DNA from: a bacterium
GTDB taxonomy: Bacteria; Patescibacteriota; Dojkabacteria; JAKAPS01; JAJZLI01
Length of the DNA stretch: 64,000 nucleotides
Direction of reading: 5' to 3'
NCBI GenBank assembly: GCA_021846685.1
Contig: JAJZWL010000004.1
Coordinates: forward strand, 7,899-71,898
Shown here: positions 48,165 through 64,000 of the stretch, piece by piece
How positions within the stretch are numbered: the first letter of the stretch is position 1
Layout: each line of letters opens with the position of its first letter
The notes under the pieces: model-generated
What the model saw: the letters and a program-made list of their open reading frames with translations, nothing else
Database searches by the model: none
Told to the model about the DNA's origin: nothing
Made by a program: the position numbers and the translations under genes

Positions 48165-48346
48165 TTCTATTTAATCTTTTTATGAAGAACTTTAGCTTAT
48201 TGTATACTAATTTACCTCGAAACTCAATTCATATCTTTTGCTTTAATATCAAAGTATATGGGTAATTAGTCCTATACTTAAAAACTATTTACATATTTTA
48301 TTGATTGCAATAATATATTTTATTTGTTATATTCTTTTATTATATT

Positions 48347-48420
48347 GGCCCTGTCGTCTAGTGGCCTAGGACATCAGGTTTTCATCCTGGAAATCGCGGG
48401 TTCGAATCCCGCCAGGGTCA
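48347..48420 (+). tRNA. tRNA-Glu (anticodon UUC)
   Basis: Acceptor GGCCCTG/CAGGGTC (one G-U), D-arm GTC-TAGTGGCCTAG-GAC, anticodon stem TCAGG/CCTGG with loop TTTTCAT (UUC), T-arm GCGGG-TTCGAAT-CCCGC; near-identical in architecture to canonical bacterial tRNA-Glu. Confidence 0.85.
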
Positions 48421-48499
48421 ATTAACGCGACACCCCCACTTGAAACATCCCGAATGTATTGATAGAACCTGCCTACAAGTGCGGTTCATTATCGAAAGT
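48421..48499 (+). repeat. Island repeat copy A: the tRNA-Glu downstream flank supplies the 3' module of the repeat unit
   Basis: 'attaacgcgacaccccc-acttgaaacatcccgaatgtattgatagaacctgcctacaagtgcggttcattatcgaaag'; about 85% identical to the 3' part of copy D (58985-59058). Confidence 0.7.
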
Positions 48500-48550
48500 T
48501 TTACTATTTTAAATCAGTTATTTTATAATTAATAATTAAGTTTATTTATA

Positions 48551-49120
48551 TTAATTCAAATTAGTAAATAGTTTTAAAAATCTTTTTTTATCCCAATCGA
48601 ATATAGCATAATCAGGCATTTTAATTTTTGATTGTATTTCTTTTGTAGGCATATCTAAATAAGAAGAGGTAAATGTTGCTAGCATATTACCATGTGATAC
48701 AATTCCAATGTTTTGAAATTTATTCTCATTCTTTACAATTTCTTCAAGTGCTGTATTAAATCTTCCTAAGGCTTCTTCAAAACTTTCACCTCCATCCATT
48801 CTTTGAACCTTCCCACTATACATTGCTTCTTGTTTTTTTTCATATTCAGTCTTTCCTGAAGTAAATTTTAATGTAAATGAGGTAATTTCTGTTAATCTAT
48901 TATCTGTTTTTACAGGAATAATATTTTTAGAAGCTAAAATCAATGTAGTTTCTAAAGCTTTTGTTTGTAGACTTGTATAAATTATATCTATATCTTTTAT
49001 ATCCTTATTATTCGATAAATCATATGCTCTTTCTATACCTTCTTCAGTAAGATTCCAAAGTACAATAGGAATATTCGGTTCTTGTTGAGTTTTTGAATGC
49101 CTAATAAATGTTATTTTCAT
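48551..49120 (-). CDS. Histidine phosphatase family protein (PGM/SixA branch)
   Basis: 189 aa; 'ITFIRHSKT' (RH-x-x-T catalytic His) and 'VSHGNML' second His. Confidence 0.6.
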   Translation of the reverse strand: MKITFIRHSKTQQEPNIPIVLWNLTEEGIERAYDLSNNKDIKDIDIIYTSLQTKALETTLILASKNIIPVKTDNRLTEITSFTLKFTSGKTEYEKKQEAMYSGKVQRMDGGESFEEALGRFNTALEEIVKNENKFQNIGIVSHGNMLATFTSSYLDMPTKEIQSKIKMPDYAIFDWDKKRFLKLFTNLN

Positions 49121-49137
49121 ATGATATAGACTTACTA

Positions 49138-50557
49138 AGTCTTTTCTAATTGAATAATAACCCTGAAATTAAATTGAGAAATATGAGTTTAGTCTTGTAA
49201 AAAGTATATCATTTTCTTTATTAATTTTCTAATTTATCAAATACTTTTTTTAGTGAGTATATATCTTTTAATATTTCATGTTTTTGAATTTGAACTAGCT
49301 TCATGTATTGATTGTGAGAATATCTAAGTTCTATGTTATCCATTTCTTTAAAAGAAAATTCTTTTTTTAAACTTTTACCTTTAGGATCTATGAATTTTAA
49401 TCTTTGGTATGGGGTCATGTAATCAGACTGTTTATATTTTTTCCTTATTCTTCCTTTATCATCTATTTTAATTTCAGGAAACCCACATGGATGATGATAA
49501 TTTAGATATTCATCATAATAATCTTTAAAAAATGTATCTAGTTGAGGTATATATTTAGAATCTATTGGTGTATATCCCATTTCTTTCCTTATTATTGTGT
49601 TTTTTGTTTCTACCTGGCCATTATCTTCTGATCTAAAGGATCGTGATTTTAACTGTTTTACATGCATTCTATTTAATATATTTGATATTACCTTGTTGAT
49701 GAATTCAGATCCGTTATCTGAATGGAATTCTGTTATTTTAAATGGGAAATATTTTAATATATCTTTTAATACTGGAGCAAGGTATCTTTGAGAGATAGCA
49801 GTTACTATATATATTCTCTGCCACTGTGTATGGTAATCTACTACGTTTATGTAATAGAGCTCTTTATCTTCGTTATTTTCTTTTTGATGTACGCTATCTA
49901 TACTGATGTGTCCAGGTAATCCATCTTTACTGAGAGCTTGTCTTATTCCTATAGCTGCGTTTATCGATGCAGTACCTCTAAGATTGTGAGAATTCTTACC
50001 AAGTAATACATATATGTAGCTAACAGATATATCTTTAATGTTTATATAGCTGGTATCTCTATATATTATATACTCATCAACCAAGATCTTTTTTATTGCA
50101 TTTCCATTTGTCTGATGCAGATCTCTTGTTTCATACACTAAGGCTATATCCTCTCTTGTATATTTATTATGGGAATGTGTTCTTTTATACTTTTGCCTTT
50201 CTATTCTACCTGTATTATGCCAAATAGAGCATAGTTTTTTCACTCTATCTTGGGATAGACACAAAACTATGGATGCATAATCTATGATAGTTCCTTTCTC
50301 TTTCTTTGAAAGCTTAAAGTAATTGTGAAATCTTAAAAGTTTTTCCAGCCACTTGCGTCCTTCAGACTTATCTCTAATCTGAAACTCTAACCCTACTTTT
50401 AAAAGATCATCTATTTGAGCTATACTTAACTTGTGTGAGTTTTTCATAATTATGTTCATTCTAAGCTTATTATGACTACTCACACATCTGTTTGCAATTT
50501 TCAGGGTTACTTTCTAATTATTTATCATCCTCTTTCAGGGTTGTTTTACTGTGGACA
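49138..50557 (-). mobile_element. IS481-like insertion sequence with a 10-bp target-site duplication
   Basis: Exact direct repeat AGACTTACTA at 49128-49137 and 50558-50567 brackets a ~1.4-kb unit; imperfect terminal inverted repeats contain AACCCTGAAA (left) / TTTCAGGGTT (right); single rve-type transposase inside. Confidence 0.6.
49221..50483 (-). CDS. DDE transposase, rve (integrase core) family, IS481-like
   Basis: 420 aa; N-terminal HTH region; core 'EFHSDNGSEF' (the H-x-D-N-G-x-E-F signature of IS3/IS481/retroviral integrase cores). Confidence 0.8.
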   Translation of the reverse strand: MSSHNKLRMNIIMKNSHKLSIAQIDDLLKVGLEFQIRDKSEGRKWLEKLLRFHNYFKLSKKEKGTIIDYASIVLCLSQDRVKKLCSIWHNTGRIERQKYKRTHSHNKYTREDIALVYETRDLHQTNGNAIKKILVDEYIIYRDTSYINIKDISVSYIYVLLGKNSHNLRGTASINAAIGIRQALSKDGLPGHISIDSVHQKENNEDKELYYINVVDYHTQWQRIYIVTAISQRYLAPVLKDILKYFPFKITEFHSDNGSEFINKVISNILNRMHVKQLKSRSFRSEDNGQVETKNTIIRKEMGYTPIDSKYIPQLDTFFKDYYDEYLNYHHPCGFPEIKIDDKGRIRKKYKQSDYMTPYQRLKFIDPKGKSLKKEFSFKEMDNIELRYSHNQYMKLVQIQKHEILKDIYSLKKVFDKLEN

Positions 50558-50631
50558 AGACTTACTATATACAAAATTAACAAAAAATGCTATGATTAAT
50601 TTAATTAAATTAATATTATATATAATAAATT

Positions 50632-51423
50632 ATGGGAGGAATTAATCATCAACCAACTAGTAATATTAGTCTTGCTTTAACTGTAGATGCGGCGCAATCT
50701 CTTACTGAAGGTATGTCTAATCTAATGAGGTCAAATGTTGAAATAGAAAATGTAGTGAAATTAACTGGTTCTAATAGAATTGGAAATGGAAGGTTACACC
50801 TTAAACAGTCCTTACTCTTTATGAGAGCAAGTTTAAATGATTTAGAGTTGGTTCATGATGGAGTTAACCTTATTATTGAAACTCTTTCTAGGGGTGATTA
50901 CAGTCCATTTTCTCCATCTATTATTAATGTGGACGAATTTGTATCAAGGGCTCAAAAAGAAAGTATGTTACCAAAGAGTGATGTGGTTATATGTGCTAGA
51001 GAAGACTGTATAAAAGGTGGTTATGAAGCTATGTTTTCGCATATCATAGAAATGATTGATAGTGCAATATTATCTACCAATTCTTTGATAAATTTGACTA
51101 ATACTATGATTGATGGACCTGAAGGAAAACAAGGTTATTTTTGGTTTACAGTTGAAACTAATAAAAAGCCTTGGAGACAAATTTTTTCTCATACTGTTAC
51201 TATGTGGCAAGATCTCCTTTCATATTGGATGACAAGTGCTCTTATATGCACTGAAGTTCATAATAAAGGGGCTAATATTCCTAGTTTATTTGAAAACATT
51301 TCTAATTTTCTAGATTTCCCAAAATATGATTTTAATAGATTATCTAGGAAAAAAGATATTCAAAAATTAAAATCTAGTTTTAATAGAGATATTACTTACT
51401 CAATAAGTAGAGATATAAAATAA
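50632..51423 (+). CDS. Hypothetical protein (compositionally GC-shifted)
   Basis: 263 aa; no recognisable motif; visibly less AT-rich codon usage than neighbouring core genes. Confidence 0.4.
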   Translation: MGGINHQPTSNISLALTVDAAQSLTEGMSNLMRSNVEIENVVKLTGSNRIGNGRLHLKQSLLFMRASLNDLELVHDGVNLIIETLSRGDYSPFSPSIINVDEFVSRAQKESMLPKSDVVICAREDCIKGGYEAMFSHIIEMIDSAILSTNSLINLTNTMIDGPEGKQGYFWFTVETNKKPWRQIFSHTVTMWQDLLSYWMTSALICTEVHNKGANIPSLFENISNFLDFPKYDFNRLSRKKDIQKLKSSFNRDITYSISRDIK

Positions 51424-51447
51424 GTAATAATATATAAAATATGATCT

Positions 51448-53082
51448 CTATTTGATACTTATTGTTTGTTCTATACTTAGATTTTGAATAAATTCTCTAT
51501 CATGAGAAACAACAAGTAAGGCTCCCCTGTACGATGAAATTGCAGTTTCTAGAGCATCAGTAGTTGTTATATCTAAATTATTTGTAGGCTCATCCAGTAT
51601 TATAATATTAGATTGATTTGCTACTATTCCTGCCAGTATAATTTTTGCTCTTTCTCCTCCACTCAATTTATATGCAGGAGTATATGTAATAGATTGTCTC
51701 TCAATATTGAATTTTACTAATAAATGCATTATTTCATTTTGTGGTATATTGGGGCATAAAGTTCTTAGATTGTCTAGTGCATTGGAGTTCATTAGCGGTA
51801 ATGATTGATTTTGATCAATATATCCTATACGTATGGAAGGGCTTAACCTTATTTGTCCTTCTTTAATAAATTTATTACTTCCAAGAACAGCATTAATAAT
51901 TGAAGTTTTGCCACTGCCATTATTACCAATTAATGCAATTCTTTCTTTTCCATATATATTAAAACTTATTGGCCCAATAGTTGATATAGAATTATTATGA
52001 GTATATTCAATAACTAAATTTTCAACACTAATTAATCTATTGCTAGAATCTAATTTTTCAGGCTCTGTAAATGTGAAATTAAGACTAATTGGTTCTTCAG
52101 GAGGATCTACTCTTTTCACTTGTTCAGATTTAGTTTTTAAAGAAGTTAACCTACTCGATATACTATTGCTAGCCTTTTCCTTACGAAAATTTGTATTTAA
52201 TTTATCATTGTCAGTTCTTGATCTGTTAGAACTTACTGATACAACATTACTATTCATCTTCTTTATTTGCTTTTCAATTTGTTTGCATTTTTTTACATAT
52301 TGATCGTGATGATGGGTGTCAGATTCGTACCTATTTTTTTTAGCCTCGACATATTCATCATATCCAAGAGTATATTCTTGAACACCATTATTTCCTCCAA
52401 GCAACTCAATTATTTTTTTTGATGCATTTCTCAAAAAACGTCTATCATGTGATACTAATACAAAACTTGCACTAGAGTGTTCTATATATGTTTCTAGTAC
52501 TATAATTCCTTCCTGGTCTAAATTATTAGTAGGTTCATCTAATAATAATAAATCATGTTTATCTGCAAAAATAGCAGCGAGCGCAATTTTAGTACGTTGT
52601 CCGCCTGAAATTTCTCCAAGACGAAGATTAGTATCAATTTCTCCCACACCAGCCTTTTTTAATGATTTTTTTAATCTCTGATGAAAATTATATACTTCTA
52701 GTTGAGTATATTTATCTTGAGCTTCTTGATAAATAAGTAGTACATTATCGTCCTCTTTTTCTGTAGATAGTTTATTACAAGCTTCCTCAAATTTATTTCT
52801 AGCTTCTTGTACCCCAGTGGTTTCTTCTATAAAATCATATACGGTATGGTCTAGCCAAGTACTAAAATCTTGTGGCATTAATCCAATTCGTAATCTCTCT
52901 GGATTAATAATTTCTCCACTTGTTGGTTGTATGTCTCCAACTAAAATTTTTAGTAATAAACTTTTTCCTACTCCGTTATCTCCAATCAATCCTATACGAT
53001 CTTTTGGATTAATATTAAAGTCTATATTAGAGAATATTTCTTTTCCATCAGTTTCATAACCGACCTCATGTACATTTAACAT
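51448..53082 (-). CDS. ABC-F family ATPase (tandem ABC domains, no TMD)
   Basis: 544 aa; domain 1 Walker A 'GDNGVGKS', signature 'ISGGQRTKIALA', Walker B 'LLLLDEPTNNLD'; domain 2 Walker A 'GNNGSGKTS', signature 'LSGGERAKIILA', Walker B 'IIILDEPTNNLD'; about 70-aa K/S/R-rich interdomain linker. Confidence 0.8.
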   Translation of the reverse strand: MLNVHEVGYETDGKEIFSNIDFNINPKDRIGLIGDNGVGKSLLLKILVGDIQPTSGEIINPERLRIGLMPQDFSTWLDHTVYDFIEETTGVQEARNKFEEACNKLSTEKEDDNVLLIYQEAQDKYTQLEVYNFHQRLKKSLKKAGVGEIDTNLRLGEISGGQRTKIALAAIFADKHDLLLLDEPTNNLDQEGIIVLETYIEHSSASFVLVSHDRRFLRNASKKIIELLGGNNGVQEYTLGYDEYVEAKKNRYESDTHHHDQYVKKCKQIEKQIKKMNSNVVSVSSNRSRTDNDKLNTNFRKEKASNSISSRLTSLKTKSEQVKRVDPPEEPISLNFTFTEPEKLDSSNRLISVENLVIEYTHNNSISTIGPISFNIYGKERIALIGNNGSGKTSIINAVLGSNKFIKEGQIRLSPSIRIGYIDQNQSLPLMNSNALDNLRTLCPNIPQNEIMHLLVKFNIERQSITYTPAYKLSGGERAKIILAGIVANQSNIIILDEPTNNLDITTTDALETAISSYRGALLVVSHDREFIQNLSIEQTISIK

Positions 53083-53199
53083 AATGTCATAATTATATCA
53101 TATAATACGGTTAAATATCAGCGATTGTACGAGGTAAATAGTTTTAAAGCTTAGAAAGGAAGGTGTTTATATGGGATACTCATATTTTTTGATATTTAT

Positions 53200-53313
53200 A
53201 ATCCAGACTAAAAGCGGTTCGATCTGAGGCATCTTAAGGTCAATTAACAAGGTATCCCCTATGAAAACATCTCAAATGTATTGATATACTAGGAAACATG
53301 CGCGGTTCGAAAT
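53200..53313 (+). repeat. Island repeat copy B (full unit)
   Basis: 'aatccagactaaaagcggttcgatctgaggcatcttaaggtcaattaacaaggtatcccctatgaaaacatctcaaatgtattgatatactaggaaacatgcgcggttcgaaat'. Confidence 0.75.
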
Positions 53314-53372
53314 AGCAACATGACCAATACTTGCAATTAGTCGTATTATGTAGTATAGTCGAGTATAGTTAA

Positions 53373-54452
53373 TTGTACTACATTATGGATAATCACGGAA
53401 GATTTAATAAGAGACTAGAAAGCATTACATCAGATATATATCTAAAGATATCTAAAACCGATGAGCTCAAAGGTATGTGGATTGGAGGCATGAAATTAAG
53501 TCCTCAAACACTTGGTAGACTTAAACAGTCGGCCCTAATAACCTCAACAGGAGCTTCAACCAGAATTGAAGGATCAGGACTATCTGATGAAGAGATTGAG
53601 AAAGTTATTAAAGGCATAAAAATTCAAAATTTTAGAAATAGAGATGAGCAAGAAGTGAAAGGATACTTCGAGCTTCTAGAAAATGTATTTAATAATTTTA
53701 ATACTTTAACTTTCAATGAAAACTGTATTAAATCTTTTCACAATGAACTTCTAAAATATGTAGAAAAGGATCAATCACATAAAGGAGAATATAAAAATCT
53801 ACCTAACCATGTTGAGCTAATAGATGAACCTAATAATATTGTAGAGGTGATTTTTGAAACTACACCTCCATATTTAGTTTCTCACCAAATGCATTCTCTT
53901 GTAGAATGGACTCAAAATGCTTTACTCGCGAAGAAATATCACCCATTATTAGTGATTGGAAATTTTATTGTTGAATTTTTGAAGATTCATCCGTTTCAGG
54001 ATGGAAATGGTAGGTTATCAAGAATATTAACTAGTTTTTTATTATTAAAGGAGGGATATAAATATGCAGAATATAGCTCTCACGAAAAGTTGATAGAAGA
54101 AAATAAACAAGAATATTACCTCTCTTTGATGAAAAGTCAAAAAACTTTCAACAAAAAAATGGAAAATATTCTACCTTGGATGAATTTTTTTATAGATATT
54201 ATGATTAAGCAAGCTCAATATGCTGTTGATTTTGGATCAAATGATAACATAGAATCTTTACTTACTAAGATACAGTTGAAAGTTTGGGAATATATATCTA
54301 AAGTAGGGGAAGCAAGTCCTAAAGATATATCTCAAAACACTGATATAGGAAGGGATACGCTAAGGCAGGTATTAAATAAATTAATTAAGTTAAAGAAAGT
54401 TGAAAAATTGGGACAAGGAGTGGGAACTTACTATAGAATAATAAAAGATTGA
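53373..54452 (+). CDS. Fic-family AMPylase (class II, N-terminal inhibitory helix) with C-terminal winged-HTH
   Basis: 359 aa; canonical Fic motif 'HPFQDGNGRLSR'; upstream 'STRIEG' fits the S/T-x-x-x-E-G inhibitory-helix motif; C-terminal HTH-like 'DISQNTDIGRDTLRQVLNKLIKLKKV'; ends with TGA. Confidence 0.85.
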   Translation: MYYIMDNHGRFNKRLESITSDIYLKISKTDELKGMWIGGMKLSPQTLGRLKQSALITSTGASTRIEGSGLSDEEIEKVIKGIKIQNFRNRDEQEVKGYFELLENVFNNFNTLTFNENCIKSFHNELLKYVEKDQSHKGEYKNLPNHVELIDEPNNIVEVIFETTPPYLVSHQMHSLVEWTQNALLAKKYHPLLVIGNFIVEFLKIHPFQDGNGRLSRILTSFLLLKEGYKYAEYSSHEKLIEENKQEYYLSLMKSQKTFNKKMENILPWMNFFIDIMIKQAQYAVDFGSNDNIESLLTKIQLKVWEYISKVGEASPKDISQNTDIGRDTLRQVLNKLIKLKKVEKLGQGVGTYYRIIKD

Positions 54453-54491
54453 AAAAATTCATCATTTTAAATATACTTTTATCAATTTAAT

Positions 54492-54546
54492 AATCCAAAC
54501 TAAAAGCGGTTCGATCTGAGGCACCTTAAGGTCAATTAACGCGACA
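54492..54546 (+). repeat. Island repeat copy C (5' module plus start of 3' module)
   Basis: 'aatccaaactaaaagcggttcgatctgaggcaccttaaggtcaattaacgcgaca'; contains the 10-bp palindrome ACCTTAAGGT (54523-54532). Confidence 0.75.
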
Positions 54547-54817
54547 AATTCACTAAAATCATATATGACAATAAAAACAAATCGTATTTAATTCACATAG
54601 AGTATTTATAATTTCATGATTGTTTTACAATTATTTTTTAATACCATATATTGGTCAGACAAGACTTTTTGTATAAGTCCACATATATTTATTGTTGTCA
54701 AACCATCAAGATTGAGAATGAAAATTAACAAAAACAGGAGAGTTTTCTATAGTCTTTATTGGTATTCTCATATATGTAAGTTTCTCTGGTTTTATGGTAT
54801 AATTCAGATTAATAATT

Positions 54818-55873
54818 ATGGAAACACAAGAGTCATTAGTATATCATCAAAATGAATTAAAAATTTATGAACCCTCTGTTCTTCAAGATTTACAGATGAG
54901 GGTGTTAGATAGCCCGAGTGAGGATACTTCTGTTTGGTTTCCAATTCCTAGAGAAGGGGAGGTTTCTTATGAATCTAGAATTGATATAGATAGTATAGAT
55001 ATTACCACAGAATATGTCGATGCACTAAATAATTATTTAGATAGGGCATTAGATGATTTTACTGGATTTAGCAAACCTAAATGTGATGGTTTTGTTGTCG
55101 CACTGTCTGGTGGTTTAGATTCAGCAGTTTCAACAGAATTACTTAACAAATATTGTAAAGCCAAGGGGTGTAATTTAAAAATATTGGTAATGGGGGAAGG
55201 AGACCATAATGAATATATCGATAGATATTTAGGAACTCCTGCAGAATGGATAGATATCCAGTATGCAAAATTAATGTGTCAAGAAAATAATTTAGATTTT
55301 GAATATTTAGATATAACTAGAGACATTAAAGCATTAAGAGATAGATATACAAAAAAATGGGCTATAAGTGGACAATTACCAAGATTGAGAGCAAATCATT
55401 TATACGCAATGGCTGAGGAACATGATTTAATATCTGTTGGAACTACTAATGGATCAGAATACATTTTGGCTGCATTTTCTACAGGTGGTCCAGCCGGAAA
55501 TATTGCACCATTATTAGATTTATATAAAACTGAAGTATATGCCATAGCTCGTGATATTGGAATTCCTAAATATATTCAGGAGAGAATGCCTTTAATAAAT
55601 GAATTAAATCTACCAGACAATAGTTTTTATGGCAGAACAGTAGATTCAACTATTTTAGATCCAATAATTAGAAGACTATGGTTTCATAAACAAAACCCAA
55701 TTAAGGTAGCAAAAGAATTAGGTCATTCCGAAAGATGGGTTCGAGATATTGATGAAAAGAGAATAAAGGGAGAATCCTGCAGAAGAAATTACAAAGGTCT
55801 TTTAATTAATAGAGGTTTTCATTTTGAAGATTTATCCCCAGATTTGTTTGTTGATAGGTCATATTTTATATAG
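54818..55873 (+). CDS. NAD+ synthetase (NadE)-like PP-loop ATP pyrophosphatase
   Basis: 351 aa; PP-loop 'VVALSGGLDSAVS'; NadE-like 'ISGQLPRLRANHLYAMAEEHDLISVGTTNGSEYILAAFSTGGPAGNIAPLLDLYKTEVYAIARDIG'; ~60-aa N-terminal extension. Confidence 0.65.
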   Translation: METQESLVYHQNELKIYEPSVLQDLQMRVLDSPSEDTSVWFPIPREGEVSYESRIDIDSIDITTEYVDALNNYLDRALDDFTGFSKPKCDGFVVALSGGLDSAVSTELLNKYCKAKGCNLKILVMGEGDHNEYIDRYLGTPAEWIDIQYAKLMCQENNLDFEYLDITRDIKALRDRYTKKWAISGQLPRLRANHLYAMAEEHDLISVGTTNGSEYILAAFSTGGPAGNIAPLLDLYKTEVYAIARDIGIPKYIQERMPLINELNLPDNSFYGRTVDSTILDPIIRRLWFHKQNPIKVAKELGHSERWVRDIDEKRIKGESCRRNYKGLLINRGFHFEDLSPDLFVDRSYFI

Positions 55874-55879
55874 ATTATA

Positions 55880-56728
55880 ATGAAAATATCATTCTTCCAA
55901 TACTTACCAGAATTTAATAATTTACAAGAGAATATAGCAAATATAGTATCTTTAATTCAAAAGAATAAAGAAAATATACTTAAAACTGATATATTAGTTT
56001 TTCCAGAATATTCTTTTTCTGGACCATTAAATTTAGATAATTTTGAGAATTATAAAAAACAAATAACTGATATGTCAGTTATTTCTATTTTAGAGAAAAT
56101 ATCCAAAGAATTAAAAGGTGTTACCATAATATTTGGTTCAATGATTTTGCCCATGAAAAATAAAACATTCGCAAATACATCTATGGTATTTAAAAATGGT
56201 AAGATTGTTGGAACATATGACAAAAAAGCATTGATATACAATGAAAATTATATTTGTACTGCATCTAAAAAATACTTAAAGTTCAATGTGGGTAAATATA
56301 AAATTGGGTTAGCTATATGTTGGGATCTAATTCTTCCAGAAGTGTTTAGAAATTATGTAAATGAAATTGATCTTATTATAATTCCAAGTTTTTGGGGGAT
56401 AGGAGGTAATTTATTGCAATCAAAGTATAAGTTTTCATTAGAAAAAAAATATTATAGACAATTGTGTGTATCTAGAGCATATGAGAATGCATTTGCTTTA
56501 TTATTTGTAAATTCAGTAGGAGAATATAAATCTTCTTTTTATACAGATAGAATGATGGGCGGAAGTTTAGCTATTATGCCTCCGTTGGGTGAGGTATATT
56601 TTTCGAATGACAAGAATCCCAATAATATTCATATTATTGAAATGGATTTTAAATTTTTAAAAGAATATAGAGAATATTATGCAACTGATAAAGACTTTAA
56701 ATATTATAAATCTAAAAATATTTTCTAA
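55880..56728 (+). CDS. Carbon-nitrogen hydrolase (nitrilase superfamily; glutaminase-type)
   Basis: 282 aa; catalytic triad context 'VFPEYSF' (Glu), 'TYDKKALIY' (Lys), 'GLAICWDLILPE' (Cys). Confidence 0.7.
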   Translation: MKISFFQYLPEFNNLQENIANIVSLIQKNKENILKTDILVFPEYSFSGPLNLDNFENYKKQITDMSVISILEKISKELKGVTIIFGSMILPMKNKTFANTSMVFKNGKIVGTYDKKALIYNENYICTASKKYLKFNVGKYKIGLAICWDLILPEVFRNYVNEIDLIIIPSFWGIGGNLLQSKYKFSLEKKYYRQLCVSRAYENAFALLFVNSVGEYKSSFYTDRMMGGSLAIMPPLGEVYFSNDKNPNNIHIIEMDFKFLKEYREYYATDKDFKYYKSKNIF

Positions 56729-57790
56729 ATGGCTAAATATATTTTTTATAAACAAAAATTAATTGATAATATAAATATGCTAAAAGATGCTTATAAATCT
56801 AAAGGTATAAATTTTAAGATTTATTATTCAGTAAAAACCAATCCTTCTGATTGTGTTTTAGAAATTATTAACAATGAAAATTGTAATTTTGAAGTTGTAT
56901 CTTATGATGAATGGCTTTCAGTAAAAAAATATAATCCTACAACTTTAGTACTTAATGGACCTTCTAAAGATATAAAAATACTTAAAAATATATTTGACTG
57001 TAATGTGAAAGAGCTATATTTTAATATAGATAATGATACAGATTTTGACATTATAGATAGTATTGATAATATATATACCGATAAATTAAAACTTGGTGTA
57101 AGAGTATATCTTGATAAAACTGGCATATGGAATAGATTTGGATTTGATATTGATTCTCCTAGATTAGTTCAAATTATAAAAAAATATCGAGATAAGATTA
57201 ATGGTTTCCATTTTCATTTTTCAACAAACAATTTTAATTTTGAAAATTATCTTCAGATTATGACTAAAATAAATAATTTAATAGATAAATACCAATTAAA
57301 CTTAGAATATATAGATATTGGAGGAGGGTTTCCTGGTGCAAGTGAAGAGATGTATTCTAATATTATATACAATAAATTACCTGATTTAATAAAAACAATG
57401 ATGCCTGATAATATTACAATTATATCTGAGGTAGGTAGAAATCTAATTGAAGATACTTTTAATATGAAAACGAGTGTTATTTCTAAGAAGAAAATATCTG
57501 AAGACAAATTTGATATAGTTATTGATACAAATATACTACATTTTCCATGTTATTGGGAGAAAAAATTTGGTATTGACTATATAGTTAAAAATGCTAATAA
57601 AGATCAAAAGCCTATAAATATAAATATTTTTGGAAACTCTTGTATGCAAATTGATAAAATAGCAGATAATTTTTTGATAGCTTGTGAACCAAATATAAAT
57701 GATAATGTTATAATATCTAAAATAGGAGCATATTCTGTCTCGCAGGCTTCTAATTTTATTACAAAAATACCAAATATAGTAATTTCATAA
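56729..57790 (+). CDS. PLP-dependent decarboxylase, fold III (Orn/DAP/Arg decarboxylase family)
   Basis: 353 aa; 'YYSVKTNP' PLP-Lys motif, 'GFHFHFSTN', 'IDIGGGFPGA' Gly-rich motif, 'EVGRNLIED', conserved C-terminal Cys 'GNSCMQID'. Confidence 0.7.
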   Translation: MAKYIFYKQKLIDNINMLKDAYKSKGINFKIYYSVKTNPSDCVLEIINNENCNFEVVSYDEWLSVKKYNPTTLVLNGPSKDIKILKNIFDCNVKELYFNIDNDTDFDIIDSIDNIYTDKLKLGVRVYLDKTGIWNRFGFDIDSPRLVQIIKKYRDKINGFHFHFSTNNFNFENYLQIMTKINNLIDKYQLNLEYIDIGGGFPGASEEMYSNIIYNKLPDLIKTMMPDNITIISEVGRNLIEDTFNMKTSVISKKKISEDKFDIVIDTNILHFPCYWEKKFGIDYIVKNANKDQKPININIFGNSCMQIDKIADNFLIACEPNINDNVIISKIGAYSVSQASNFITKIPNIVIS

Positions 57791-57799
57791 ATTAATAAA

Positions 57800-58879
57800 A
57801 TGTCAAATTTTTTAGTAACAGATATAAAAGTCATAGATAGTCCTCAGGCTGGAATAGGCGTAGCTAGGTGTTTAAAAACTTTGGGTCATAAAGTATATGG
57901 GATTGACGATACTCCATTTGTAACAAACTCAGATTTATTTGAAGCTGTTTTTGTTATAGAAGAGATTAGAACTCTTAATTTAGATAATTTAGTAAAAAAA
58001 TTAATTAATATAAAAAATTTATATCATATTGATTACATTATTCCTTGTTATGATGAAACATCAATCCTTCTTTCTTATATAAAAGATAAATTGAATTATA
58101 TTGGAATACAACTTATTGCTCCAGATATTGAAGTGATAAAGAGATTAAAAAAAGAAAATTTGGTAAATACATTTTCTGGTATTAATAATAAGCAATTATT
58201 GATACCAGAAACAAAAGTAATATCTTCTATTAAAGAAGCTGAAAATTATGCTATGCAAATTAATTATCCCCTTGTTGTTAAAGGAATGACTAAAGGTGTA
58301 AAAATTGTAGAAAATAGCACAGAATTGCCTAGTGCAATAAAATATATATGTAATATTTGGAATAATGGTGAAATTCATTGTATTATTCAAAAGTTTATAC
58401 AAGGGAAATCAATAAATGCATTATTATCCTATAAAGATGAAAGAATAGTTTCTTATTTAGAAATGGAAAAGATAGCATTAGATTCTAATGGTGCAACTTG
58501 GTTTGGGAAGCTCACTTCAGATAAAAATATATTTAATGTTATAGCTGATTTTTGCAAGTATATAAAATTAAATAATTCTATAATTGAAATAGAAACGATT
58601 TTAACAGAACAAGGAAAGTATTATGTTTATGAAATTAATTATAGACCACCGGCTTGGATCTATTCCCCAGCATTAAATGGACAAAATTTCTTAGATATAT
58701 TCTTAAATCCACAAAAAACAGTAATATTTAATAATATAAATGCCTTTTTTGGTAGAGAATCTAATGACTTTGTGAAACCTTTAGAAGATATCTCTCAATA
58801 TGAAGATTTACAATTTTATGCTAAAGGAGCTGCATATAAAAATGATAATCAAAAGTATCCTTCTGAAATTATGATTTGA
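57800..58879 (+). CDS. ATP-grasp family ligase
   Basis: 359 aa; 'YPLVVKGMTKGVKIV', 'IIQKFIQGKSINAL', 'YYVYEINYRPP' (E-x-N Mg-binding motif). Confidence 0.55.
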   Translation: MSNFLVTDIKVIDSPQAGIGVARCLKTLGHKVYGIDDTPFVTNSDLFEAVFVIEEIRTLNLDNLVKKLINIKNLYHIDYIIPCYDETSILLSYIKDKLNYIGIQLIAPDIEVIKRLKKENLVNTFSGINNKQLLIPETKVISSIKEAENYAMQINYPLVVKGMTKGVKIVENSTELPSAIKYICNIWNNGEIHCIIQKFIQGKSINALLSYKDERIVSYLEMEKIALDSNGATWFGKLTSDKNIFNVIADFCKYIKLNNSIIEIETILTEQGKYYVYEINYRPPAWIYSPALNGQNFLDIFLNPQKTVIFNNINAFFGRESNDFVKPLEDISQYEDLQFYAKGAAYKNDNQKYPSEIMI

Positions 58880-58942
58880 ATAAGAATATTAAATTAGTGT
58901 AATAATTGGTGGTTGATTGTCAAATATTTTTACTAATTTCAC

Positions 58943-59058
58943 AATCCAAACCAAAAGCGGTTCGATCTGAGGCACCTTAAGGTCAATTAACGCGACACCC
59001 TCTGTAGAAACATCTCGAATGTATTGATGGAACTTGCTTACAAGTGAGATTTGAAATG
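58943..59058 (+). repeat. Island repeat copy D (full unit)
   Basis: 'aatccaaaccaaaagcggttcgatctgaggcaccttaaggtcaattaacgcgacaccctctgtagaaacatctcgaatgtattgatggaacttgcttacaagtgagatttgaaatg'. Confidence 0.8.
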
Positions 59059-59072
59059 CTAATGGAAAATTA

Positions 59073-59366
59073 TTAATTATAAACTTTTTTGTTTCCTGAG
59101 TGTCCACCTATGGTCAAAGCTATGATAGTAGTTCTGTTATCAAAAAAATCCCAAATAATCCGTAGATCTCCAGTTACTCTTGAACTATATCTTATACCAT
59201 AATTTCTTGTATTTACTTTATGTGTTTTTAGGTTACTAGAGAAAGGGTTTTCTGTAAGTATTATGATTTTTTGATCAATTATTTTTTTTAAATTTGTATT
59301 TCCTTTTACATATTTTCTATAAGATCTTTCAAATTCTTTTGTTATAGTAAAATCATATATTTTCAT
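59073..59366 (-). CDS. RelE/ParE-superfamily type II toxin (mRNA interferase-like)
   Basis: 97 aa; 'TGDLRIIWDFFDNRTTIIALTIGGHS' matches the RelE/YafQ C-terminal pattern; 6 nt downstream of the putative antitoxin gene on the same strand. Confidence 0.55.
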   Translation of the reverse strand: MKIYDFTITKEFERSYRKYVKGNTNLKKIIDQKIIILTENPFSSNLKTHKVNTRNYGIRYSSRVTGDLRIIWDFFDNRTTIIALTIGGHSGNKKVYN

Positions 59367-59372
59367 ATAGTC

Positions 59373-59663
59373 TTATTTACTTATTTTGTTAAGATGATCT
59401 TTGATCTGGCTTGTAGATTTCAATCTTGTTACTCTTCCTGTTTCAATATCATCTAATGCTCTTCCAATACTTTCTTCGGTTTCTAAGTCAACCATAGGAA
59501 TATCTTTATATAATGGTTTAATATCTTCAATTACTAGGTGCCTTACATATTCAGGAGTAGAGATGCCTAACTGTTCAAGTCTGATCTTTATTAATTCAAA
59601 TAAAGGTTGTGGAAATCCCACTTGTCTTACAACTGTATTTTGTGTTTGATTATTTTTACTCAT
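59373..59663 (-). CDS. Putative antitoxin of the RelE-like toxin
   Basis: About 97 aa from 'MSKNNQT' (the track ORF is extended to 59702); small, upstream of and co-oriented with the toxin. Confidence 0.4.
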   Translation of the reverse strand: MSKNNQTQNTVVRQVGFPQPLFELIKIRLEQLGISTPEYVRHLVIEDIKPLYKDIPMVDLETEESIGRALDDIETGRVTRLKSTSQIKDHLNKISK

Positions 59664-59746
59664 AATTATATAAATGTATTGTAGCACATGTGTAACAAGC
59701 ATTCAACATACATCTATAACTATTTGTATATTTCTATTACTTTAGT

Positions 59747-59839
59747 GATCCAAACTAAAAGCGGTTCGATCTGAGGCAACTTAAGGTCAATTAACTCGAT
59801 ATCACATGTTTGAAACGTTCCAAATATATTGATGAAATC
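59747..59839 (+). repeat. Island repeat copy E
   Basis: 'gatccaaactaaaagcggttcgatctgaggcaacttaaggtcaattaactcgatatcacatgtttgaaacgttccaaatatattgatgaaatc'. Confidence 0.75.
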
Positions 59840-59989
59840 TTATTTTCATAGGTATATTCTGATATTTTTCTTTATTTTTACTAATTATCCTTATCAATTA
59901 TTGATGAAGAATTTAGAGTGTCATATCACTATCGTCAACCTGAATTCTCCGATATTGACAATTATTGGATAATATATCATAATTAGTAC

Positions 59990-61243
59990 ATGGAAGAAAC
60001 ATTATATATGCAAAATCCTTGGTGGATGAATAGAGAATTTAATATAGGGATAATAAGAAAACAATCTCTTGATAAATTAAAAAGTATGGCTTTAAATAAT
60101 AAAGTTACAATGTTACTTGGAGGGAGACGTGTAGGAAAAACTTTTTTGATATATCAATATATAGATTATCTTTTAAAATCAAGAATAAAAGAAAAAAATA
60201 TACTATATTTACTTTTAGATACAAGGGCATTTGAAGATATAACAATTGTTAATTTACTAAGAGAATATAGAAAAATTCATAATCTTAGTATAGATGAGAA
60301 AATATATATTTTCTTAGATGAGATTCAATATAAAGATTCATGGGAGCAAGAAGTAAAGAATCTTTATGATACTGAGCCAAATATACAAATAGTTTTATCT
60401 GGATCTGCAAGTTTTAAAATTCATACAAAAACATCTTTTCTAACAGGTAGATATGAAATTATGAATTTATATCCTTTAAATTTTTTAGAATGGATAGGCA
60501 TTAGAGGTATTAAAATTCTTCCATCTGAGAGTTATAAATATCAAAATGAATTAAATGAATATTTATTTAAAGGAGGATATCCAGAATATGTTATTAAAGA
60601 GGATCCACAATATTTTCCTAATCTTGTAGACAGTATTGTATATAAAGATTTTGTAGAATATTTTAATATTAAAAATTTAGATATTGTTAAAGACTTATTT
60701 AAATTACTTTCAGATAGGACAGGGTCTCATTCAAGTCTTTCAAAAATAGGAAATATTCTGTCTATAAGCAAAGAAACAGTGAGGGAATATATATATGCTT
60801 TAAAGGGAAGTTTTTCTGTATATGAATTACAACGTTATTCTTCAAGCAGGAATGAGAGAATATATTTTGCTAAAAAATACTATTTAAATGATAATGGATT
60901 ACAATTTAATCAATCTGGTAAATTTAATAAAGGTCAATCTGCAGAGAGAACTTTATTTGATTATTTATATAAAAAATATTCAGATTCAATTTATTTCTAT
61001 TATGATAATAAAGTAGAAGTAGATTTTATATTGAAATATCATGATAGATTAGAACTGATAGAGTCTAAATACATAAATGATATTTCTGATTTTAATCCAA
61101 AATCTCTTCTAAAGGCAATGAAATCATTAGATGTAACTAATGCTACTGTTATCACAGAATCTATTGAAGAAGAATTAGTATTTGATGAAAAAAAGATAAT
61201 ATTTATTCCTTTATGGAAAGTTTTGGTAAAGCAAATTATATAA
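59990..61243 (+). CDS. AAA+ ATPase of the AAA_14/DUF4143 type
   Basis: 417 aa; Walker A 'LLGGRRVGKTFL', Walker B 'IFLDEIQY'; C-terminal domain of DUF4143-like length. Confidence 0.7.
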   Translation: MEETLYMQNPWWMNREFNIGIIRKQSLDKLKSMALNNKVTMLLGGRRVGKTFLIYQYIDYLLKSRIKEKNILYLLLDTRAFEDITIVNLLREYRKIHNLSIDEKIYIFLDEIQYKDSWEQEVKNLYDTEPNIQIVLSGSASFKIHTKTSFLTGRYEIMNLYPLNFLEWIGIRGIKILPSESYKYQNELNEYLFKGGYPEYVIKEDPQYFPNLVDSIVYKDFVEYFNIKNLDIVKDLFKLLSDRTGSHSSLSKIGNILSISKETVREYIYALKGSFSVYELQRYSSSRNERIYFAKKYYLNDNGLQFNQSGKFNKGQSAERTLFDYLYKKYSDSIYFYYDNKVEVDFILKYHDRLELIESKYINDISDFNPKSLLKAMKSLDVTNATVITESIEEELVFDEKKIIFIPLWKVLVKQII

Positions 61244-61303
61244 ATTATTCATAATTTTTTAATTAGATATAGTAAAAATCTAGATTACTTTTATCATTTT
61301 AAT

Positions 61304-61350
61304 AATCCAAACTAAAGGGGTTAGATCTATGGCACACCAAGGTCAAGTGA
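61304..61350 (+). repeat. Island repeat copy F (degenerate)
   Basis: 'aatccaaactaaaggggttagatctatggcacaccaaggtcaagtga'; shares the extended left context 'cttttatca-ttt-aataatcc' with copy C. Confidence 0.55.
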
Positions 61351-61475
61351 TGCTACAATTCTGGATCAAATAGTATGTTATTAAATGGTGCTCAAAGACA
61401 AACTATTGGAGCTTTTGAAAAAAGGTATTTGAAAAATAGGGATTGATCAATAATTCTATCTTTGGAATAGGAGTT

Positions 61476-62171
61476 TTATCTTCTAGCTAATTTGGATGCC
61501 ACATCCAACATTCTTCTTCCATATCTTTTATTTTTATTATCTCTACAAACAATATCAACTGCGCTCTTATAAGGAATTACGACTCTTCTTCGAAGTGACG
61601 CTATATAAGTTCTGTTGTTAGGATAAAATATACTATGTTTTCCTAATATACTAAAAACTTTTTCACCTGTATCTAATAGTTTATAACTTCTTTCAGATTT
61701 TATATCATCCTCACATGATGATATATAATGTTCTATTTTAGAGCGTGAATACTCATCCATTGCTTCAAATTTTTCAGTATCTCGGTACTCGCCCAATATT
61801 TCTCTGGGCTTATCTACTCTCACATCTCCAGACATATCTTTACCTTCACTTTTGAAAAAAGATAACAATTTTTTAACCCTCTCTTTATTGTGGAAAGCCA
61901 CTATTTGTATTCTACTATCTTCTCCATTTTTAAACCTAGATAGATATAATCTTCTTAACAGTCTTAACTCGATATTGGTGTCAAATGCCCAGTCTCTAAA
62001 AATGAAATATTGTGGGTTTATGCCTAGATCTAAAAGAACAGAAGCTAAAACTTCCGAATATTCTTGACACTTAGGATTATCGCTATCTTCTATATTTGCT
62101 GCAGTTGATAGTATGTATGGTTTTCTTGAATCTGGTGCTAAATGCCATAAGAGTGCAACAGATCCTGCCAT
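61476..62171 (-). CDS. Hypothetical protein (GC-shifted, Arg-rich C-terminus)
   Basis: 231 aa; start at ATG 62171 with an in-frame stop 30 nt upstream; uses CGA/AGG/GCC-type codons rare elsewhere in the window. Confidence 0.4.
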   Translation of the reverse strand: MAGSVALLWHLAPDSRKPYILSTAANIEDSDNPKCQEYSEVLASVLLDLGINPQYFIFRDWAFDTNIELRLLRRLYLSRFKNGEDSRIQIVAFHNKERVKKLLSFFKSEGKDMSGDVRVDKPREILGEYRDTEKFEAMDEYSRSKIEHYISSCEDDIKSERSYKLLDTGEKVFSILGKHSIFYPNNRTYIASLRRRVVIPYKSAVDIVCRDNKNKRYGRRMLDVASKLARR

Positions 62172-62562
62172 TGATCTTAAAATGCATCCATACCAGCTTC
62201 ATCCTTCCAAGGATCTCCTTTCCCAAGAACCATTATTGCATCAGGTAATGATTCTTGCAAAGGTTCGTTGTTGTAGACTTGTTCTATTTCCATGGGGGAA
62301 ATTATATCATGTCATATAGTTCTTAACAAAATAATTACTAAAAATTTTGTTATTCATTAGAGCTTAATATTCTATAGCTACAATATTATTAGTTTATATA
62401 AATAAAAAATGCACGAATTTCGCTATAATAAAGATTAAAGATTCAAGATCCTTTCAAAATACTTAAAGGTGTTGGATTAAAGGGTAGTGATACTTTTATA
62501 GATAAGGTTAATTTAATTACCTATTTGATTTTAATATTAAAAATATCTAGAATATTGTATAT

Positions 62563-63510
62563 ATGGGAGTTAAATATATAGATCATAGGAATCCTGATAT
62601 ATTGAATCTTAAAGAAATTGAAGCATATTTTAACTATCTTGATTTTACTGTTATATCATCTTCTCAATCATGGAGATATGTAACTGGGTTTTTAGAAAAT
62701 GATAATAAAGAGTATTTTTTTAAAGTTTCAACTAATTCAGCCTTAAGTGAACGTTTAAAAACTGAAATTGAATGGGAAGAGATAAGAGATAGAGAAGATA
62801 TAAAACTATCTTGTGATTTTCCACAAATATATAAAACTGGATTTTATAAAGATATACTACTTTATATTGTTTTTGAGAAGGTAAATGGAGTTCCTCTTGC
62901 AAACTCTACTAAAAATGATGACAAAAGTATGCAGATATTTATAAGTCATATAAAAGATGTTGTCAAAATAATACATTCTATTATGAGTATTAATTCAGAT
63001 TCATTACTTCCTAAGGATAGGAAGATGAATATGAGTATAGCCGATTTTATAGTTGGATCCTATAAAAAATATCTTAATGAGATGCATAATAGAATTGATG
63101 TGAAATCTTTAGAAAAAATCATAGAAGCTGGGATTCAATATACTACAGTTGCTCCAGCTCATTGTGATTTTGTTCCAGAGCATCTCTTAATTGAAAATAA
63201 TACTAAACTGTATGTTGTTGATAATGAAGCATTTTCATTACACCATGTAAAATTTTATGATTTAGCATATATGTATCATAGATTATATACAAAATACTGT
63301 AGACCTGATATTGCAAATAAATTACTAAATCTATATGAATCAGAATATCCTCTTTCTAAGCAAGAGATTCTTGCATTTAGGGCTATCTTGGGTGTTAGAC
63401 TTATAGGTGGATTTTTAGATGCAGAAAATGATAAGGGTTTTTCTGGAGGTACAAAAATTGAAATGCAATTATCTATGCGAGAAAATTTGGAGAAAGGAAA
63501 AATTATATAG
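62563..63510 (+). CDS. Protein-kinase-like phosphotransferase (APH/choline-kinase fold)
   Basis: 315 aa; 'VAPAHCDFVPEHLLIE' (H-x-D catalytic loop) followed by 'YVVDNEAFS' (DFG-equivalent Asp). Confidence 0.5.
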   Translation: MGVKYIDHRNPDILNLKEIEAYFNYLDFTVISSSQSWRYVTGFLENDNKEYFFKVSTNSALSERLKTEIEWEEIRDREDIKLSCDFPQIYKTGFYKDILLYIVFEKVNGVPLANSTKNDDKSMQIFISHIKDVVKIIHSIMSINSDSLLPKDRKMNMSIADFIVGSYKKYLNEMHNRIDVKSLEKIIEAGIQYTTVAPAHCDFVPEHLLIENNTKLYVVDNEAFSLHHVKFYDLAYMYHRLYTKYCRPDIANKLLNLYESEYPLSKQEILAFRAILGVRLIGGFLDAENDKGFSGGTKIEMQLSMRENLEKGKII

Positions 63511-63547
63511 TTTGTAATATTTTTTTATCAACTTCTGCTTAATTAAA

Positions 63548-63772
63548 CTATTTTGAATGATTAGGATCTAATTGATTTTTTAATCTCCTAATATGTTCTA
63601 TTATTTCACGCCTAATCCTTTCTTCTTGTAATTTTTCAAGTGCATCTATTTCTTCCGGTTTTTGATATCCAAGATCTCCAGCAACTTTTGGAGATACACC
63701 ATCCACGACTCCTCCGAATTGATTCGCCATTACATTATCCCAATATACTCTTTTTAAATCTTCATTTCCCAT
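63548..63772 (-). CDS. Hypothetical small protein
   Basis: 74 aa; 'LEKLQEERIRREIIEHIRRLKNQ' charged helix; no motif. Confidence 0.3.
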   Translation of the reverse strand: MGNEDLKRVYWDNVMANQFGGVVDGVSPKVAGDLGYQKPEEIDALEKLQEERIRREIIEHIRRLKNQLDPNHSK

Positions 63773-64000
63773 AGTATTTTATGATTATATTATACTATAT
63801 TTAAAGAAAAATAACTATACTATAAGATGCCTTCTGTTATGAGTAAACTTTAAAAAAGATGACAGTATTCAAAATATAACTTGAAAGAAAAATTAGAAAA
63901 TTTAGAGAAAAACAATGATATACCTTAATTGTCGAATCTCAGATAAACTATTGGCTTCATCACCTTTTCAGTAATCTGATGATAAGAAAAAATCTGATAA

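Follow-up and report, generated by a model that had tools for sequence, protein, structure and literature searches.

In integrons, a group that includes the sedentary chromosomal integrons and the clusters of attC sites lacking an integrase (CALINs), the integrase IntI is encoded beside the attI site, and the attC sites form hairpins with R''/L''-L'/R' boxes. Insertion sequences (ISs) of the IS200/IS605 type insert in an orientation-specific manner 3' of a target of 4-5 nt without target duplication, and their derivatives are mobilized in trans. Tandem accretion of islands and integrative elements, including cis-mobilizable elements (CIMEs), at tRNA and tmRNA genes is described in a study of ssrA islands in Dehalococcoides (PMC3146451) and in two reviews (PMC5704250 and PMC5812530). 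The window analyzed here, a stretch of 64,000 nt of contig JAJZWL010000004.1 (positions 7,899 to 71,898; assembly GCA_021846685.1), carries an array of short gene units behind a tRNA-Glu gene, and the units are bordered by copies of one repeat family. An exact protein look-up matched this stretch to contig DAHWLQ010000005.1 of the metagenome-assembled genome GCA_027331785.1. Arrays of this kind combine tandem accretion at t(m)RNA genes with integron-like cassette behavior. The repeats are probably att-type recombination sites that bound small mobile cassettes, arranged head-to-tail at the 3' end of tRNA-Glu, and that are used by an unlinked recombinase acting at the pentanucleotide GGTCA. The conclusion that the units are mobile cassettes is well supported.

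A 38-nt core of the repeat (AAAGCGGTTCGATCTGAGGCACCTTAAGGTCAATTAAC, with at most one mismatch) was found four times in the window, on the + strand only (at 53211, 54503, 58954, and 59758), with a chance expectation of 0 in 100 shuffles of this DNA, the G+C content of which is ~27%. Each copy grows to ~130 nt by repeat finding and an nhmmer profile, and the copies are named A (53.2 kb), B (54.5 kb), C (58.9 kb), D (59.7 kb), and E (61.3 kb). Copy E, a degenerate fifth member at 61285-61424, was recovered by repeat finding and profile search and lies beyond the range covered by the preliminary description of this DNA. The sixth member is the 3' end of tRNA-Glu together with ~75 nt downstream (48414-48498; repeat finding, alignment, and profile). 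The repeat family is real and directional: the cargo genes occur on both strands and the sites on one, so that the earlier statement that all copies lie on the + strand holds for the four near-exact copies and, by profile, for the five copies and the tRNA copy. The gene context given in the preliminary description, with copies between the ABC-F and Fic genes, between the convergent ATP-grasp and relE genes, and between the divergent antitoxin and AAA genes, was confirmed, and a copy between the Fic gene (+) and the NAD-synthase operon (+) has to be added to it. Alignment also agreed with the statement that the copies are closer to each other than to the tRNA-Glu 3' end, since the likeness among copies far exceeds that between any copy and the tRNA.

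The cassettes share a common layout, in which a left module (L) of ~61 nt stands at the tRNA-distal end and, usually, a 7-mer and a right module (R) of ~75 nt stand at the tRNA-proximal end. The array is anchored at the 3' end of tRNA-Glu, which serves as its primary attachment site. In all genomes examined, the array is headed by an intact tRNA-Glu, and in five genomes, all of the junctions between tRNA and cassette fall directly after GGTCA. In the window, tRNA-Glu(TTC) ends in ...CGCCAGGGTCA and is directly followed by an R module (ATTAACG-CGACACCCCCACTTGAAACATCCCGAATGTATTGAT...GTGCGGTTC), and the same module follows tRNA-Glu(CTC) in a genome of a second lineage (L033). The tRNA gene is flanked by the gene of an AI-2E transporter, which precedes it, and by cassette cargo, and relatives of the locus were collected via homologs of this transporter gene.

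One of these relatives (L026) belongs to the same species, its core DNA being 98.6% identical to the window, and contains 2,733 extra bp between tRNA-Glu and the His_Phos_1 gene. The extra DNA consists of two cassettes, each with a terminal L and with one gene without a family match (357 and 346 aa). The breakpoints on the window fall at 48416-48420, which is GGTCA, and in L026 a full L site, not the tRNA, precedes the same end of the His_Phos_1 cassette. A different species (L023; GCA_027424915.1), with core DNA of 70-75% identity and an AI-2E protein of 70% identity, has an array in the order tRNA-Glu, AAA_14-DUF4143, L, Fic, L, and a disrupted AAA_14 gene. Its AAA_14 cassette is 98.8% identical in nucleotides and 99.3% in amino acids to the cassette between D and E of the window, and in L023 it is the first unit behind the tRNA, in the window the last of the array. 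The identity starts exactly at AAGGTCA (preceded by the tRNA in L023 and by an L in the window) and stops 8 nt past the distal AAGGTCA. The Fic cassettes of the two species are also shared (98% protein identity; 97.7% identity of the cassette body), and the shared DNA stops exactly after AAGGTCA on the right. At three of the four mapped boundaries between L023 and the window, identity thus starts or ends exactly at AAGGTCA, and the two cassettes show integron-type behavior in that they are shared and reordered between arrays whose cores are ~70% identical. A more distant relative (L028; AI-2E protein 53% identical) provides an empty site, in which a DnaJ-MFS-MarR gene group begins 15 nt after tRNA-Glu and no homology to L or R is present at all. 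In the genome of the window, the orthologs of this group (51-73% amino acid identity) lie 19.8 kb after the tRNA, so the variable region continues past the end of the window to DnaJ. The presence or absence of cassettes at GGTCA in L026, the reordered cassettes of 97-99% identity, and the empty site bear out the proposal of the preliminary description that the repeats are directional recombination or boundary sites, and comparison with the relatives likewise supports its view that the copies are of attP type and not decaying duplications of the host tRNA. In other assemblies, contigs break at sites D and E; these breaks were considered as a sign of structural variation and were set aside, because repeats by themselves can interrupt short-k assemblies.

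A mechanism can be proposed in which a cassette, once excised, would form a circle carrying a single L-GGTCA-R site. A recombinase provided from elsewhere would exchange strands within or next to GGTCA, pairing the site on the cassette with the tRNA 3' end or with an L already present in the array. Insertion would keep the tRNA intact and set the L of the cassette downstream, and all of the sites would consequently be co-oriented, independently of the direction of the cargo genes. One or several cassettes could then be deleted or moved when any two sites recombine. By analogy with known tRNA-targeting elements, the enzyme would most likely be a tRNA-targeting tyrosine integrase. Since the 7-mer to the right of GGTCA is variable, the overlap region of a tyrosine recombinase, should one be at work, has to lie in GGTCA or to the left of it. 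Motifs similar to GCGGTTCGA, located ~30 nt to the left and ~60 nt to the right of the crossover, are possibly candidate arm sites.

An unlikely alternative is that no dedicated recombinase is involved and that the repeats of ~60-130 nt serve as homology anchors for DNA uptake followed by RecA exchange or gene conversion, with deletions arising via the direct repeats. This explanation would account for the lack of a recombinase near any array and for the mosaic structure of the R modules between copies, as exemplified by the Fic cassette, in which R(A) is swapped for another R variant in L023 while the cassette body is still 97.7% identical. The L modules, moreover, are nearly identical over 40-60 nt, a length sufficient for homologous exchange at low frequency. 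Against it stand the five independent tRNA/cassette junctions located exactly after GGTCA, where the identity between tRNA and L amounts to 5-11 nt and is too short for RecA-type exchange. Because these precise and repeated junctions fall where the partners share so little, a site-specific process is needed, and the same requirement follows from the empty site, from the strictly uniform orientation of the sites, and from the fact that cassettes move as units. In addition, the empty site of L028 has no L or R homology, and the first insertion therefore cannot have been homologous. Homologous recombination alone is less likely than recombination at att-type sites, and the same applies to single-strand transposition and to inert scars, which are treated below. 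The mosaic R modules nevertheless point to homologous exchange or gene conversion between copies as a process that may also occur; taken together with the left boundary of the Fic cassette, they point either to such extra exchange or to a second crossover site.

Several results count against recombination at att-type sites by an unlinked enzyme. The search for a recombinase covered the window, ~10 kb of contig past its end, a closely matching strain contig past its start (L016), and the arrays of L023, L026, L033, and L036, and neither Pfam nor NCBIfam detected a tyrosine or serine recombinase in the window, its flanks, or the four other arrays. The left boundary of shared identity in the Fic cassette lies at the right end of R and not at GGTCA, because the two genomes carry different R variants. 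The 7-mer after GGTCA differs between the two ends of the same cassette. The likeness of L to the 3' half of tRNA-Glu is modest (z 2.3-3.9), and beyond the terminal 11 nt it lacks specificity for tRNA-Glu. No L site was detected in viral contigs by pattern scans, and a BLAST search with one copy gave no match in phage and plasmid collections. Co-orientation holds for all sites except the one in a segment that is inverted in a single assembly (L037).

The catalyst is hypothetical, given that no recombinase was found in the searched region. The preliminary description had noted that no cognate recombinase is visible, and this holds; its suggestion of att sites of an integrase outside the window gives the best fit. 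No recombinase was found in any of the five arrays. A motif scan for recombinases was also negative in the window, L001, and L008; no protein of the Phage_integrase type was detected, and no IntI stands beside tRNA-Glu. The rve gene of cassette 1 was considered as the cognate enzyme and rejected. Its protein has weak matches to IS481 and IS3 transposase models. The protein family counts >5,000 members from Patescibacteria and some archaea, most of them located on contigs of ~1.4 kb, and the closest homologs of the rve protein adjoin ribosomal protein operons with no L sites nearby. The element (49140-50525) has its own candidate terminal inverted repeats (TAATTGAATAATAACCCTGAAA and TTTCAGGGTTACTTTCTAATTA, at 49147-49168 and 50499-50520), and its 37-nt end (49138-49174) matches the distant genome L033 perfectly at 4603-4639. 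It is an ordinary IS481-like IS inserted into cassette 1, and its transposase is unrelated to the sites. A second strain-level rearrangement lies at this IS: L026 has a 5'-3' exonuclease gene past His_Phos_1 (L026 1-983; from 49123 onward in the window) that is absent from the window, where the IS, the gene for the 263-aa protein, and the ABC-F gene stand in its place. Five cassette proteins without a family were also checked as hidden recombinases, namely X1 (357 aa) and X2 (346 aa), the 263-aa protein of the window, a 256-aa protein of L023, and a 397-aa protein of L036. None of them has a significant Pfam match, the first four have none in PHROGs or PADLOC, the 263-aa protein has none in NCBIfam, and no recombinase motifs were seen by eye, which leaves this candidacy without support.

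The anatomy of the sites was derived from an alignment of L comprising 14 non-tRNA copies from five genomes. The consensus of ~61 nt (TACTTTTATcAATTTaAtAATCCAAACTAAAAGCGGTTCGATCTGAGGCAnnnnAAGGTCA) ends in AAGGTCA, and its conservation is limited by cassette-specific DNA on the left and ends directly after GGTCA on the right. L resembles a tRNA T-arm (GCGGTTCGA) and the terminal (CGCC)AAGGTCA of tRNA-Glu, and some L modules end in CGCCAAGGTCA, which is the last 11 nt of the tRNA. The tRNA of the species of the window (AGGGTCA) and the sites (AAGGTCA) have 5 nt in common. To the right of GGTCA, the 7-mers ATTAACG/A/T, AGTGATG, AGTAATG, AGTAACG, CCAAACG, CCAAATG, and CCATAGG were found. The R module, variable and present in about half of the copies, follows the pattern (C/T)GACACCCC..TTGAAACATCCCGAATGTATTGAT...GyGGTTyGAAAT. 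The 10-bp palindrome ACCTTAAGGT, to which the preliminary description drew attention, is indeed perfect at 54.5 and 58.9 kb and imperfect at 53.2 and 59.7 kb, and it loses its weight in the relatives, which carry CGCCAAGGTCA, CACCAAGGTCA, or TGCCAAGGTCA in its place; because it is not conserved, the palindrome is incidental, and it was rejected as a functional core. The internal echo reported for the repeat unit also stands in part. A second exact GCGGTTCGA is found 88 nt downstream in the 53.2 kb copy only; the tRNA copy, copy C (58.9 kb), and several copies of the relatives have a degenerate form of the echo. A Xer/dif site has 28 bp, with two ~11-bp arms around a 6-bp spacer, and pdif modules alternate in site orientation. 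The present sites, in contrast to the 28-bp XerC/XerD site, have a conserved part that is an asymmetric sequence of 61 nt and are co-oriented, which does not conform to the Xer/dif type by this comparison of features, made without a formal dif-model search.

The position behind a tRNA gene and the partial likeness to the tRNA 3' half could also be taken to mean that the copies are inert scars, i.e. displaced tRNA 3' ends left by past islands whose integrases have since been lost, with no present function. Degenerate copies, such as E and copy 3 of L033, would fit this view, as would the tandem island arrays known at t(m)RNA genes (PMC3146451). The copies, however, share derived features lacking in the tRNA (a segment longer by 5 nt and a 20-nt upstream extension), and these features are kept across two lineages with different tRNA-Glu genes. 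The scar explanation is further opposed by cassettes of 97-99% identity that occupy different array positions in genomes with 70-75% identical cores and by the strain-level indel; such near identity in divergent cores, together with this indel, indicates that exchange at the sites is recent. Inert scars are disfavored and very improbable.

Single-strand transposition was weighed in the same manner. The cassettes would be non-autonomous passengers of HUH transposition (IS200-IS605-like or rolling-circle), inserted in one orientation 3' of GGTCA without target duplication, with the transposase encoded elsewhere. The strict orientation, the insertion immediately 3' of a pentanucleotide that is repeated at the right end of each element, and the restriction of common sequence between tRNA and sites to the 5 nt given above are all in line with this idea, as is a weak imperfect inverted repeat (GATCTGAGG-N3-CTTAAGGTC) that adjoins the right end. 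This inverted repeat is, however, broken in copies of the CGCC/CACC type, and subterminal hairpins are unsupported by folding (z ~0) and by covariation. No gene for a Y1 or HUH transposase was found in ~150 kb of context. Single-strand elements would not usually carry cargo of up to 4.4 kb, as found here, and transposition of this type is improbable.

The preliminary description had also considered a structured noncoding RNA, a terminator family, or attC-like cassette sites. That every cassette border is intergenic and that two copies contain a short palindrome would suit a structured small RNA, transcription terminators or insulators, or integron attC-type folded sites. The folding and compensatory changes were checked. 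The minimum free energies of single copies were like those of shuffled sequence (z from -0.7 to +0.7 in eight copies), and the RNAalifold consensus of 12 copies reached only -2.8 kcal/mol, with a covariation term of -0.1 and a double change in one of the 11 predicted pairs. Rfam at E<=5 gave no match except the tRNA itself, no terminator-like site was found at any copy, the GTTRRRY/RYYYAAC pair of attC was not seen on inspection of the site sequences, and the palindrome is unconserved, as stated above. These readings are hardly credible and were rejected; for attC-like sites, the behavior of the cassettes, which are shared and reordered, agrees with the suggestion, and the lack of a hairpin contradicts it.

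A second lineage was first met by a DNA pattern scan of a genome collection (L008) and was then extended to L033 (GCA_027339005.1)/L008 and L036/L037 (GCA_021809565.1); a protein of L036/L037 is assigned by NCBI to a Patescibacteria group bacterium. The search for the consensus in relatives, which had been suggested earlier, thus yielded L sites in this lineage, where the same L and R modules stand behind tRNA-Glu(CTC) in the neighborhood FtsX ... TsaE/B/D. The sites separate PIN, RelE/YafQ, and VapBC toxin-antitoxin cassettes and truncated AAA_14 genes, and copy 3 of L033 is degenerate. The regions of tRNA-Glu(TTC) in the window (48312-48462) and of tRNA-Glu(CTC) in L033 (8731-8880) are 86% identical over 153 nt; this match takes in ~30 nt upstream and the downstream R module despite the differing genomic neighborhoods. 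L008 was the one true relative found by the pattern scan of the genome collection, and the scan of Joint Genome Institute (JGI) metagenomes for the L pattern gave chance matches only, with a strict pattern that required AAGGTCAA. This pattern was too strict in the genome-species and JGI metagenome scans, in that it misses the L copies of L026 and passes over sites of the ...AAGGTCACC type.

The exception to co-orientation is a 343-nt inversion between assemblies of one species (L037 8385-8727 and L036 9049-9391), which are 100% identical inside it. The inverted segment spans the entire intergenic region that carries the site, located between two divergent antitoxin genes whose similar 5' coding ends form the borders of the segment. 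It could be a real promoter swap of two toxin-antitoxin operons or an assembly artefact. Several toxin-antitoxin cassettes have a common promoter-like region after R, consisting of TTGACA, 17 nt, and TAATAT (L033 9830-9860 and 11460-11490; L036 9325-9355). These regions contain the palindrome GACATCATGTC, which, judged from its sequence, is likely an operator for antitoxin autoregulation.

When the arrays are set beside the described systems, they resemble tandem islands at tRNA genes. As in those islands, insertion targets the 3' end of a small-RNA gene and leaves this gene whole, each unit has at its far border a repeat related to the 3' end of that gene, the units are tandem with co-oriented sites, and a relative provides the empty site. 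Like CIMEs, they consist of att-flanked units without recombination genes that would rely on an enzyme in trans. In contrast to the tRNA islands, the units span only 0.8-4.8 kb with one to four genes, no unit in five arrays carries an integrase, the conserved site of ~61 nt differs from the tRNA over most of its length and is no exact copy of the tRNA end, and the host is Patescibacteria-like. A CIME, which also lacks transfer genes, by definition lies beside, or derives from, a cognate integrase-bearing element with the same att, and no such element was seen at the loci covered. With integrons, the arrays share the small cassettes with one site at the distal end of each, the fixed primary site at the head, the appearance of new cassettes beside this primary site (L026 and L023), the sharing and shuffling of cassettes between genomes, and the toxin-antitoxin cargo. 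They differ in the absence of IntI next to the primary site, in the use of a tRNA 3' end instead of attI, in sites that are not imperfect hairpins with R''/L''-L'/R' boxes, and in cassette genes that occur in both orientations with their own promoters. With IS200/IS605 elements, they have in common the orientation-specific insertion 3' of a short target without target duplication, and unlike these, they have multi-gene cargo, lack conserved subterminal hairpins, and show no TnpA gene in any of the contexts. No description of such arrays in Patescibacteria was found in the literature searched, a search that was not exhaustive. It is a tentative possibility, rather doubtful at present, that the arrays represent an integron-like platform of an undescribed kind, with the tRNA-Glu 3' end as the primary site, a linear, tRNA-like, non-hairpin cassette site of ~61 nt, an unlinked recombinase, and defense and toxin-antitoxin genes circulating between species. 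The unlinked recombinase of such a platform would perhaps be a host enzyme or a member of a family missed by current profiles.

The features of the array and its flank are listed in Table 1. The predicted cargo is mostly related to defense or addiction, as judged from sequence matches, and includes the SoFic-like Fic gene, the AAA_14-DUF4143 gene (PDC-S01), and RelE/YafQ and VapBC toxin-antitoxin pairs. An exact-protein look-up of the toxin returned same-species context only. The largest cassette holds an operon of four genes (54818-58879) for a NAD-synthase/PP-loop-like protein, a PLP-dependent decarboxylase-like protein, an ATP-grasp ligase, and a carbon-nitrogen hydrolase, which resembles a pathway for the modification of small molecules or peptides and not a set of defense genes. 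In the AAA_14 cassette, a 72-nt segment of the window (59843-59914) has no counterpart in the otherwise 98.8% identical DNA of L023. The direct repeat TATTGATGAA on both of its sides suggests that the R arm underwent a local duplication or deletion. L(E) is followed on its right by AGTGATG, a 7-mer type of several sites in the relatives. The DUF218-like gene right after site E is a pseudogene in pieces of 38 and 231 aa, and an intact 271-aa ortholog (73% amino acid identity) lies just past the array of the second lineage (L036 10178-10993), behind the other tRNA-Glu.

Table 1. Features of the cassette array behind tRNA-Glu and of its distal flank (positions in the window).
Feature	Position	Strand	Support
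tRNA-Glu(TTC)	48346-48421	+	ARAGORN, Rfam
R module, left end of cassette 1	48422-48498	+	alignment; nhmmer E=2.6e-10
Cassette 1, ends in L(A)	48422-53242	.	Pfam, NCBIfam
His_Phos_1 gene (cassette 1)	48551-49120	-	
rve gene of IS481-like insertion (cassette 1)	49221-50483	-	
Gene without family match, 263 aa (cassette 1)	50632-51423	+	
ABC-F gene (cassette 1)	51448-53082	-	
L(A), 61 nt, ends in AAGGTCA	53182-53242	+	
R(A), ends in second GCGGTTCGAAAT motif	53243-53313	+	
Fic cassette, ends in L(B)	53243-54534	.	Pfam
Fic gene, SoFic-like	53373-54452	+	Pfam; PADLOC SoFic 1e-36
L(B)	54474-54534	+	
Four-gene cassette, ends in L(C)	54535-58985	.	Pfam
NAD-synthase-like, CN-hydrolase, Orn/DAP decarboxylase-like, and ATP-grasp genes	54818-58879	+	Pfam
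L(C)	58925-58985	+	
Toxin-antitoxin cassette, ends in L(D)	58986-59789	.	Pfam
R(C)	58986-59058	+	
YafQ/RelE-type toxin	59073-59366	-	Pfam
Antitoxin of the YafQ/RelE-type toxin	59373-59702	-	Pfam
L(D)	59729-59789	+	
AAA_14-DUF4143 ATPase cassette, ends in degenerate L(E)	59790-61345	.	Pfam
R(D)	59790-59842	+	
AAA_14-DUF4143 ATPase gene	59990-61243	+	Pfam; PADLOC candidate PDC-S01, 1.4e-67
L(E), degenerate	61286-61345	+	
Distal variable flank without recognizable sites	61346-64000	.	
DUF218-like gene, frameshifted	61476-62294	-	
Kinase-like gene	62563-63510	+	
74-aa open reading frame	within the distal flank, 61346-64000		

Patescibacteria (bacteria of the candidate phyla radiation, CPR) have tiny genomes and are mostly uncultured, and their gene exchange is little understood. 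In this locus, a recognizable site marks a hotspot at which units of one to four genes are inserted, lost, and passed between species with ~70% identical cores, and anti-phage candidates together with addiction modules make up most of its cargo. With L...AAGGTCA behind tRNA-Glu as a sequence tag, cassettes of this kind can be catalogued across metagenomes, and co-occurrence can be used to look for the unlinked enzyme. If this enzyme proves to be host-encoded or a new recombinase, the arrays would represent a second, independent solution to the "integron" problem.

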